A stretch of 64,000 bases of DNA from Escherichia phage fjerdesal, in sequence record MN850605.1. The stretch is one strand, 5' to 3'. The notes beneath the pieces were generated by a model, which was not told the DNA's origin, did no database searches, and was given only the letters and a program-made list of their open reading frames with translations. Shown one piece after another: positions 54,621-63,797 of the stretch. How positions within the stretch are numbered: the stretch's first letter is position 1; every line of letters starts with the position of its first letter. The position numbers and the translations under genes were made by a program.

Positions 54621-62636
<8,016 letters not shown>

Positions 62637-62637
<1 letters not shown>

Positions 62638-62876
62638 TACATTTTTCCTGCTCTTCTAAGTTCGTTGTAAGCAATTTCCTCTTTATACGACCTCTGAATC
62701 TCAAGAAATTGTCTCAATGATAATAAATCAGAGAATGTCATAGCAAAGAGTTGGTCAAGTGTTTCTTTACACCCTTCCATACCATAAATAGCAAGCACAA
62801 ATTTCATCTCGTCTGCTTCTTCATAGGTTGCCTCTACAGCAGCATCAGTCAGTGGTGTCTGTAGAGTATTACCCAT
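62637..62876 (-). CDS. tail assembly chaperone, downstream (frameshift-extension) ORF
   Basis: position between tail tube and tape measure; reached in the -1 frame from the upstream chaperone ORF. Confidence 0.5.
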
Positions 62877-62878
62877 GT

Positions 62879-63277
62879 TTACTGAGAAGTTAGGCTTTTG
62901 AAAATGCTTGCTTCGAAAAAACTTCCGAAGTTTGCCTCCAGCGCAAATGCTAGGTAATCAATAAATTCACCGTAGTTTGCTTGGAAGTACGTATCAATAT
63001 TAAGTGGGAAGTCATCAACAGTTGCCCCTTGAAATAACAGGGTTGCCATCTCTTCAAGGTTAATTTCTTCAATTCTGTCAAAACAAGCTTCAACAAGTTC
63101 TTTAAATGGAACCATTGGAGCTTCTTTCTTATCCTTGTCAGTCAGACTTGATAGCATCTGTGCAAAGGTTGGAACAACAATTTTACCCAACTTCATAGAC
63201 ATCTTAATACCATCTCTTGCCCCAAGCAGAACGATATTTACTTTCTTACCATTAATTACTCTAGATTCTGTTTTCAT
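62879..63277 (-). CDS. tail assembly chaperone
   Basis: position; contains slippery heptamer T_TTT_TTC near its 3' end. Confidence 0.5.
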   Translation of the reverse strand: MKTESRVINGKKVNIVLLGARDGIKMSMKLGKIVVPTFAQMLSSLTDKDKKEAPMVPFKELVEACFDRIEEINLEEMATLLFQGATVDDFPLNIDTYFQANYGEFIDYLAFALEANFGSFFEASIFKSLTSQ

Positions 63278-63312
63278 TGTGATTCCTTAATACTTTTAAA
63301 AGAAACAAAAAA

Positions 63313-63338
63313 GGGGAAGACCTTTTAAAGTCTCCCCC
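63313..63338 (-). terminator. hairpin GGGGAAGAC-(loop)-GTCTCCCC followed by T7 on the minus strand
   Basis: seen in sequence after the tail tube gene. Confidence 0.5.
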
Positions 63339-63350
63339 TTATAGGATTTA

Positions 63351-63797
63351 TTAAACACTTGACGCTGGAATTGTAGAAGTGTAGTCTAACTTCTCACAAC
63401 CAAAAATCCAAGTTTTAGAGTTCTGGTCACGACCAAGTTCAATCTGTGGTAACTCCTGCAACCAAGCGTTAATACCAGTTGCCAGAACAGAGCCTGATGG
63501 GTCGTAGATTACGAAGTTAGAAGAGATATCTTCTTCAAGTTCCATATTGTCTTGTTTAGCTTGAATTGCAGAAAGCATCTGGTTAGAGAGAGAAGTCTGC
63601 ATTAACTCAATCTCAATAGTGCCTGTCTTGTCTGCATTTCTTGTCAGAGCAACCTGACCACCTGCACCAACAACTGGTGTCACAAGTGGTGATGTTCTCT
63701 GTAGACGCAAGAATGAGTCTGGAGCAAAGCCTTCAATAGCAATGCCGTTCCAGCTACATACAACGTCTTTAGGGGAATATTGCTGATACATAGCCAT
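63351..63797 (-). CDS. tail tube protein
   Basis: 148 aa; position immediately upstream of chaperones and tape measure. Confidence 0.5.
   Translation of the reverse strand: MAMYQQYSPKDVVCSWNGIAIEGFAPDSFLRLQRTSPLVTPVVGAGGQVALTRNADKTGTIEIELMQTSLSNQMLSAIQAKQDNMELEEDISSNFVIYDPSGSVLATGINAWLQELPQIELGRDQNSKTWIFGCEKLDYTSTIPASSV

Follow-up and report, generated by a model that had tools for sequence, protein, structure and literature searches.

Systems similar to the locus described here include the tail assembly chaperone pairs of phages lambda and P2. In lambda, the genes encoding gpG and gpGT are flanked by those of the major tail protein and the tape measure protein; the long form, which is rare, has an additional domain at its C terminus, and the virion contains neither product. 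The lambda frameshift takes place on the heptamer G_GGA_AAG and needs no strong RNA stimulator; the pair has reportedly been the subject of studies by Levin, Hendrix and Casjens in 1993 and by Xu, Hendrix and Duda in 2004, 2013, and 2014. In the contractile-tail phage P2, the equivalent pair gpE/gpE+E', reportedly described by Christie et al. in 2002, is flanked by the genes for the tube (FII) and the tape measure (T), and is expressed through a −1 shift on the T-run heptamer T_TTT_TTG, with tRNA-Phe in the P site. A summary of the lambda gpG/gpGT mechanism has been published (PMC5009743). Simultaneous slippage on X_XXY_YYZ heptamers on Escherichia coli ribosomes is also used by dnaX and by IS911/IS3, where a downstream hairpin or pseudoknot, with or without an upstream Shine-Dalgarno, is needed for high efficiency.

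Much closer to our locus are the Citrobacter phages Moogle, Michonne, and Mijalis, of the genus Mooglevirus. According to the genome announcements of the three phages, a translational frameshift is used for the tape measure chaperone, and the −1 frame is named in the Michonne paper. The Moogle record contains a joined CDS at the same site as the one analyzed here, with a fusion product of 212 aa (UniProt A0A0A0RQ75) versus 213 aa in our window. The genes are orthologous (about 81% DNA identity in the region and about 75% protein identity for the upstream frame, ORF A), the heptamer T_TTT_TTC falls on the same codons, and the junction peptide is FFR[SG]KHFQKPNFS. These phages differ from ours in that they belong to another genus; in Moogle, ORF A is three codons longer, and the downstream frame has an ATG with a good Shine-Dalgarno. 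Barry and the other Felixounavirus records that we checked annotate two separate ORFs instead of a join.

The window of our study is the whole stretch of 64,000 nucleotides from Escherichia phage fjerdesal (MN850605.1). The region of interest shows 100% identity with Escherichia phage Barry and with phage Tribble, and about 98.6% with Salmonella phage Felix O1, so that, by sequence identity, the phage, which has a contractile tail, is assigned to the genus Felixounavirus (subfamily Ounavirinae). Along the minus strand, the tail tube gene comes first, then ORF A, ORF B, and the tape measure gene. The tail tube protein gene (63797..63351, 148 aa) matches the PDB entry 9mt4_P, 'Tube protein', with E=2.9e-96; in phage Bas63, the tube protein is gp14 (PMC12609058). 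It is followed by ORF A (63277..62879, 132 aa in the ORF list), the putative short tail assembly (tape measure) chaperone equivalent to gpG and gpE, and by ORF B (62876..62637, 79 aa), which is contained in a longer −1 frame extension. The tape measure protein gene (62637..60409, 742 aa) was recognized by Pfam TMP_3 (E=2.3e-17) and PHROG 4036 (1530 bits). The −1 frame ends at 62637, where its stop meets the tape measure ATG in the junction ATGTAATGG with an overlap of 1 nt. As in systems of the G/GT type, two overlapping ORFs are therefore found here between the tube and the tape measure genes. No tRNA genes were detected in the window by a tRNA scan.

The family assignments of both frames agree with this position. 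ORF A matches the Pfam family PF21822, Phage_TAC_15, with E=1.2e-19 and 71.5 bits against a cutoff of 22 bits, as well as PHROG 1613, 'tail assembly chaperone' (E=7.9e-49), and PHROG 3840, and its start is preceded by the Shine-Dalgarno AAGGA (−6.1 kcal/mol). The AF2 model of ORF A (pLDDT 74) retrieved tail assembly chaperones in a Foldseek comparison with viral models, the best of them being the 212-aa 'Tape measure chaperone' of Moogle; neither this model in a Foldseek comparison with the PDB, nor the fusion in a sequence search of solved structures, gave a significant match. ORF B matches only PHROG 4963, also a 'tail assembly chaperone' (E=2.8e-55). On the basis of these sequence matches, ORF A is assigned to the tail assembly chaperone family. 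ORF A belongs to Phage_TAC_15, and its likeness to the lambda pair is drawn from the arrangement of the genes. It has been reported that the virion proteome of Felix O1 includes Gp63, Gp64, and Gp67, while Gp65 and Gp66 are not listed (PMC3185647), and in the cryo-EM paper on Bas63 a chaperone appears only in the title of a cited reference and not as a virion component (PMC12609058). Judged from this literature, the products are missing from mature virions, as are those of G/GT-type systems. Some other records in our hit list label these genes as head closure or tail completion proteins.

On the minus strand, the end of ORF A and the beginning of ORF B read GGA AGT TTT TTC GAA GCA AGC ATT TTC AAA AGC CTA ACT TCT CAG TAA AC ATG GGT. 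This stretch contains the heptamer T_TTT_TTC (U_UUU_UUC in the mRNA, 62921..62915, minus strand) in the X_XXY_YYZ register of ORF A, on codons 119-121 (Ser-Phe-Phe): it opens with the third base of Ser119 and goes on through Phe120 and Phe121. The coordinates and the frame of the heptamer given in the earlier note, which can be read directly from the sequence, are correct, and so is its distance of about 14 codons from the stop of ORF A if it is counted from the first codon of the heptamer; after its TTC, 11 sense codons and the stop remain. In the dual-coding overlap (62921..62879, minus strand), frame 0 reads FFEASIFKSLTSQ followed by the stop codon, while frame −1 reads FFRSKHFQKPNFSV. The −1 frame continues through FFRSKHFQKPNFSVN into the M of ORF B without a stop, in the same frame as ORF B, just as the earlier note had stated; the stretch RSKHFQKPNFSVN in it lies upstream of the ATG of ORF B. 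The whole −1 frame extension (62921..62637, minus strand), the putative equivalent of the gpT and E' domains, includes ORF B and comprises 94 open codons and a stop. By frame arithmetic, the shift is predicted to yield join(63277..62915, 62915..62637), minus strand, a protein of 213 aa whose residues 1-121 come from ORF A and are followed by RSKHFQKP... in the −1 frame. Peptides predicted from the fusion over the junction and the region upstream of the ATG of ORF B are HFQKPNFSVNMGNTLQTPLTDAAVEATYEEADEMK with trypsin and ANFGSFFRSKHFQKPNFSVNMGNTLQTPLTDAAVE with GluC.

With its contractile tail, its position between tube and tape measure, its T-run heptamer, and tRNA-Phe in the P site, the locus resembles that of P2; it differs in the protein family and in the last base of the heptamer, which is C here and G in P2, giving a Phe instead of a Leu tRNA in the A site. 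Lambda differs in being a siphovirus and in having tRNA-Lys in the A site, as opposed to tRNA-Phe in both sites here.

To place this heptamer among others of its kind, we conducted a census of in-frame XXXYYYZ heptamers across the window, whose 78 gene-like ORFs total 17,988 codons. A total of 69 were found (0.0038 per codon), among which the one at 62921..62915 is the sole T6 heptamer. At the other 68, the −1 frame runs into a stop after 2-37 codons; T_TTT_TTC is alone in being followed by 94 open codons.

The conservation of the site was examined in 12 frameshift-bearing lineages, down to about 27% protein identity. In all 12, T_TTT_TTY is found at the same NF-x-[S/T]FF motif, which is invariant, and the wobble positions are fixed as NNT TTT TTY. 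T_TTT_TTC occupies the matching codons in all the Felixounavirus loci that we fetched, in Suspvirus (SUSP1), in Mooglevirus (Moogle, Sf17), in Kolesnikvirus (Erwinia phage phiEa21-4 and Salmonella phage SE5), in Yersinia phage P778, and in the uncultivated lineages L031/L033, L051, and L052, and the distant viral contigs L039-L043, whose ORF A is 27-35% identical to ours, have T_TTT_TTT at the homologous [S/T]FF codons. An extension of 93-97 aa in the −1 frame is present in all the lineages examined, and these extensions align with one another. The residues just past the slip are kept as well, as FFR[SG]KHFQKP in the close genera and as FFYxKxY in L039-L043. In several lineages the −1 frame has a stop 0-5 codons before the heptamer, and the shift site is therefore tightly bracketed. 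The earlier note had named the lack of conservation of the heptamer in relatives, together with the absence of a detectable fusion product, as a reason to abandon its proposal; for the heptamer, the outcome was the opposite. As a small additional result, the comparison of these sequences identifies the U-run at NF-x-[S/T]FF as deeply conserved across the Phage_TAC_15 family.

The synonymous sites of the region also carry a signal. Among pairs of sequences with the same residue, the frequency of identical codons rises from a mean of 0.62 over ORF A to 0.95 in the nine-codon window GSFFEASIF and is 0.89-0.95 across the dual-coding overlap, with a rise that begins exactly at the heptamer. Between clades, nucleotide identity increases from 0.56 to 0.87-0.88 over the overlap stretch, and blastn matches Kolesnikvirus only over a 41-nt island (62892-62932, 92.7% identity) that has the heptamer at its centre. 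This is the pattern of constraint to be expected, at the sequence level, of two frames translated from the heptamer onward.

A search of the databases with the 213-aa fusion retrieved only proteins of ORF A length (55-61% coverage) and no full-length fused homologue. A fused homologue was found through the neighborhood of one of the hits (P0086), on the chromosome of Buttiauxella noackiae, in what is apparently a prophage, with tape measure and Dit-like genes located downstream. In this locus, the short chaperone encodes NFGSFF as AAC TTT GGC TCA TTC TTC, without a T-run, and the gene next to it is one uninterrupted ORF of 201 aa. The N-terminal half of the 201-aa ORF is a paralogue of the Buttiauxella short chaperone (E=7e-10), and the fusion predicted in our window aligns with the 201-aa ORF across the junction (residues 81-208, E=5e-13). 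The single Buttiauxella ORF supports the view that the fusion of A and B is a genuine protein architecture. Because the only lineage that needs no frameshift is the one without a T-run, the comparison also suggests that the T-run is not required by the protein motif itself.

With regard to elements that could stimulate the shift, the earlier note had proposed the prediction of a downstream structure. Three segments were folded, namely the first 45 nt and the first 95 nt past the heptamer and a stretch of 91 nt spanning it. The 45 nt downstream (−3.2 kcal/mol, z=+0.59) fold no better than shuffled sequence, so that no such structure was found within this distance (z about 0), and in seven further Ounavirinae-type relatives the corresponding 45 nt gave z values from −0.97 to +0.94. 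No stable hairpin or pseudoknot of the kind used by dnaX and IS911/IS3, located 5-9 nt past the heptamer, was found. Only one hairpin is significant (62877..62822, z=−2.55); it begins more than 38 nt past the heptamer and was rejected as being too far away for a classical stimulator. Another candidate, in which the heptamer falls within the loop and the 3' arm of a hairpin, was discarded, given that Yersinia phage P778 and Kolesnikvirus do not conserve it and that it is a consequence of the codons. An Rfam scan of 62500-63400 returned no family at the gathering score, and its sub-threshold hits all fell on the terminator hairpin upstream of ORF A.

Upstream of the heptamer, at a distance of 13 nt, there is a Shine-Dalgarno-like GGAGG (62939..62935, minus strand), a candidate stimulator whose role might be similar to that of the dnaX upstream element. 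Felixounavirus, Suspvirus, and Mooglevirus all have this GGAGG, and GGGAG or AGGAG is found 11 nt upstream of the heptamer in L039-L041 and L043. The element is weak in L042, absent or weak in Yersinia phage P778, and absent in Kolesnikvirus, and its role is uncertain because it is missing in the last two. It has been reported that U_UU.U_UU.C and U_UU.U_UU.U are measurably shift-prone in E. coli even without stimulators, that H_HH.U_UU.Y heptamers are among the most efficient classes, and that IS elements contain U_UU.U_UU.C, among other heptamers (Sharma et al. 2014, PMC4066793). Because no stimulatory RNA structure was found within 45 nt downstream, the efficiency of the shift in our phage may be low.

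Taken together, the sequence evidence makes it very probable that this Felix O1-type myovirus expresses the tail assembly chaperone pair encoded at the locus through a programmed −1 ribosomal frameshift. The earlier note had proposed for the locus the classic chaperone frameshift between the tube and the tape measure genes, and the gene context, the protein family, the conservation of the site, the synonymous constraint, and the fused homologue all speak for it. Most ribosomes would read ORF A to its stop and produce the 132-aa chaperone. A minority, with tRNA-Phe on UUU in the P site and on UUC in the A site, would slip back one base on U_UUU_UUC, both tRNAs would re-pair on UUU in the −1 frame, and translation would resume at CGA (Arg) and continue over 92 further codons to end at the start of the tape measure gene, giving the 213-aa fusion of A and B. 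By analogy with lambda gpG/gpGT and P2 gpE/gpE+E', the N-terminal domain shared by both forms would coat the tape measure protein, and the C-terminal extension of the rare long form would recruit the tube protein to start tail polymerization. The virion would be expected to contain neither form, and the efficiency of the slip would determine how much long protein is made relative to the short one. The most likely form of this process is a low-efficiency −1 ribosomal frameshift driven by the heptamer only, with a skewed short-to-long ratio as in lambda gpG/gpGT. In this description, we infer the ribosomal nature of the shift and its efficiency, and the binding partners of the proteins are taken from the analogy.

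Other explanations of the same arrangement were considered. The fusion could be dispensed with altogether if ORF B were translated alone, as a free 79-aa protein, from its ATG at 62876 through termination-reinitiation. This ATG is only 2 nt past the TAA of ORF A, nine Felixounavirus records, RefSeq included, annotate two ORFs, and in Moogle-type phages the ATG, a few codons further on, has the Shine-Dalgarno GGAAGG (−7.2 kcal/mol). In our window, however, the ATG of ORF B has no Shine-Dalgarno (+0.7 kcal/mol versus a median of −6.05 for the ORFs of the window, only 6% of which are as weak) and is predicted to be base-paired in a hairpin. Moreover, the location of this ATG varies, as in other genera an ATG comes some codons later or is lacking. 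In a scan that took in 11 lineages, five (Kolesnikvirus, L051, L052, L040, and L042) have an extension whose first 40 codons or more include no start codon, the first start-capable codon being located 42-64 codons in, well inside the conserved domain. Reinitiation as the sole mode of expression would also leave unexplained the conserved −1 peptide FFRSKHFQKP upstream of the ATG, the synonymous constraint from the heptamer onward, and the single-ORF fused homologue, and we consider it very improbable. As in G/GT-type systems, the downstream ORF is without independent initiation signals, though the window does hold an ATG, and by these sequence features ORF B does not qualify as an independent gene. 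Since the ATG follows the stop of ORF A by 2 nt, termination-reinitiation could nevertheless add a free 79-aa product alongside frameshifting. A further account, a functionless Ser-Phe-Phe T-run that happens to precede an overlapping frame, might appeal to the AT-rich genome and to the frequency with which in-frame XXXYYYZ heptamers occur in it, but a long −1 extension follows just one of the 69, the codons NNT TTT TTY are fixed in every frameshift lineage, and the lineage that has the fusion as a separate gene uses TCA TTC TTC. The comparative data effectively refute this coincidence, to which we assign a negligible probability.

More difficult to set apart from ribosomal frameshifting is transcriptional slippage, in which RNA polymerase would add an extra U on the T6 run and the resulting U7 mRNAs would encode the same 213-aa fusion; the protein product is identical, and sequence analysis cannot separate the two processes. 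The site is a homopolymer, T6 here and T7 in L039-L043, and a weak hairpin followed by the T-run, similar to a terminator or pause signal, is located at 62941-62925. In E. coli genes, U7 runs are avoided, possibly owing to slippage of this kind (Sharma et al., PMC4066793). Selection for transcriptional slippage should, however, have lengthened the run. Efficient slippage by bacterial RNA polymerase is said, for example by Baranov et al. in 2005, to need runs of about 8-9 or more, and by this measure six T, or the seven of L039-L043, are short. The run is always found in the X_XXY_YYZ register, although this is weak evidence since the SFF codons are homologous, and U_UUU_UUC has been validated as a site at which ribosomes shift without the help of a stimulator (PMC4066793). 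For these reasons, transcriptional slippage appears unlikely, and the −1 ribosomal frameshift is the reading that we retain.

The frameshift is already known in kind and at the orthologous site: it is the frameshift conserved among tail chaperones (Xu, Hendrix and Duda 2004). Our literature search found no explicit report of it for Felix O1 or Felixounavirus and no experimental demonstration of the fusion in Ounavirinae, the published statements being annotations. It is not mentioned in the genome paper of Felix O1 (PMC3185647) or in the cryo-EM paper of Bas63 (PMC12609058), and the main text of the PhageMaP paper on gene essentiality in Bas63 contains nothing on the chaperone genes. In the nine Felixounavirus records inspected (the Felix O1 RefSeq, garuso, Barry, ESCO45, GEC_vB_NS7, BPS17S6, and LinBro, together with the hit-list annotations for EC6 and JH2), two separate ORFs without a join are annotated in every case.

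The locus does not introduce a new biological principle; it is another case of the lambda G/GT strategy, already noted in sister genera. Its value lies in the annotation, as the Felixounavirus records that we inspected leave out the 213-aa fusion. A correct joined CDS matters for the engineering and refactoring of these therapeutic and biocontrol phages, in which synonymous recoding of AGT TTT TTC, or separation of the two ORFs, would probably abolish tail assembly. At the level of the family, we put forward a more tentative proposal, which we hold to be possible but somewhat less probable than its opposite: Phage_TAC_15 may be a family with a very old, stimulator-free U6/U7 signal in NF-x-[S/T]FF, from which at least one lineage, that of Buttiauxella, would have been freed of recoding by duplication into a short gene, whose T-run decayed to TCA TTC TTC, and a pre-fused gene. 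If both Buttiauxella genes are functional, they would constitute a natural experiment in which the stoichiometry set by frameshifting has been replaced by control of the expression of two genes.

The slippery heptamer of the tail assembly chaperone gene, ORF A, takes the form T_TTT_TTT in the more distant relatives. In L039, L040, and L041 (at L039:1848, L040:1854, and L041:1854), folding of the approximately 45 nt downstream identified a modest hairpin, which begins 1-4 nt 3' of the heptamer (-9.5 to -10.2 kcal/mol, z about -1.9 to -2.3). No hairpin like this one was found downstream of the heptamer in the Ounavirinae sequences that were folded. Another distant homologue (25% identity), located at positions 1197-1810 of L044, a GC-rich IMG/VR sequence (UViG_3300035050_000006), presents NFGDLF at the position of NF-x-SFF. 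Its last 45 codons were searched for an XXXYYYZ heptamer and none was found; its -1 ORF overlaps by 81 codons.

A two-gene arrangement was identified in Buttiauxella noackiae (L050:3001-3986; JPRU01000001.1, a 1.88-Mb contig), where the chaperone genes apparently form part of a prophage. The short chaperone, of 126 aa, lacks the T-run (TCA TTC TTC), and its gene lies next to a paralogue, a separate single ORF of 201 aa that is homologous to the frameshift fusion of ORF A with the downstream ORF B. Such an arrangement would need no frameshift.

In two GenBank records, LR597658.1 (VpaE1_ev108) and OK040807.1 (C600M2), the features listed for the region homologous to positions 62600-63300 bear either the names "Hc1 head closure protein", "Tc1 tail completion protein", and "Tail sheath protein" or the name "head closure protein". 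Such names give the impression of mis-annotation, perhaps through a shift of the labels.

On the minus strand, a hairpin is predicted at 62822-62877 (z=-2.55). The ATG of ORF B is paired in its outer stem (CAUGGGU with ACCUAUG), and the inner stem, CUCUACAG/CUGUAGAG, is of 8 bp. The distance of this hairpin from the slip site, more than 38 nt, rules it out as a classical frameshift stimulator, but it could suppress the independent initiation of ORF B. By eye, relatives seem to present small hairpins at the same place that differ from that of the window: CCCCAU...AUGGGG in SUSP1 and CCCCG...CGGGG in Moogle.

Two terminator-like sites were also identified on this strand. The weak one, found by a pattern scan at 62925-62941, consists of a 6-pair stem that includes G-U pairs, CTGGAGGCAAACTTCGG, followed by the slippery T-run, AAGTTTTTTC; this places a weak hairpin directly 5' of the U-run, which is relevant to transcriptional pausing and to transcriptional slippage, a rival explanation to ribosomal frameshifting. 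The strong one, at 63311-63340, resembles an intrinsic terminator, with a 13-bp stem containing 6 G-C pairs and then a T-run. It stands in the interval that separates the tail tube gene from that of the chaperone, and it is recorded as "Potential terminator" in the annotation of phage Barry. This hairpin probably attenuates transcription, which would lead to lower levels of the chaperone and the tape measure relative to the sheath and the tube.
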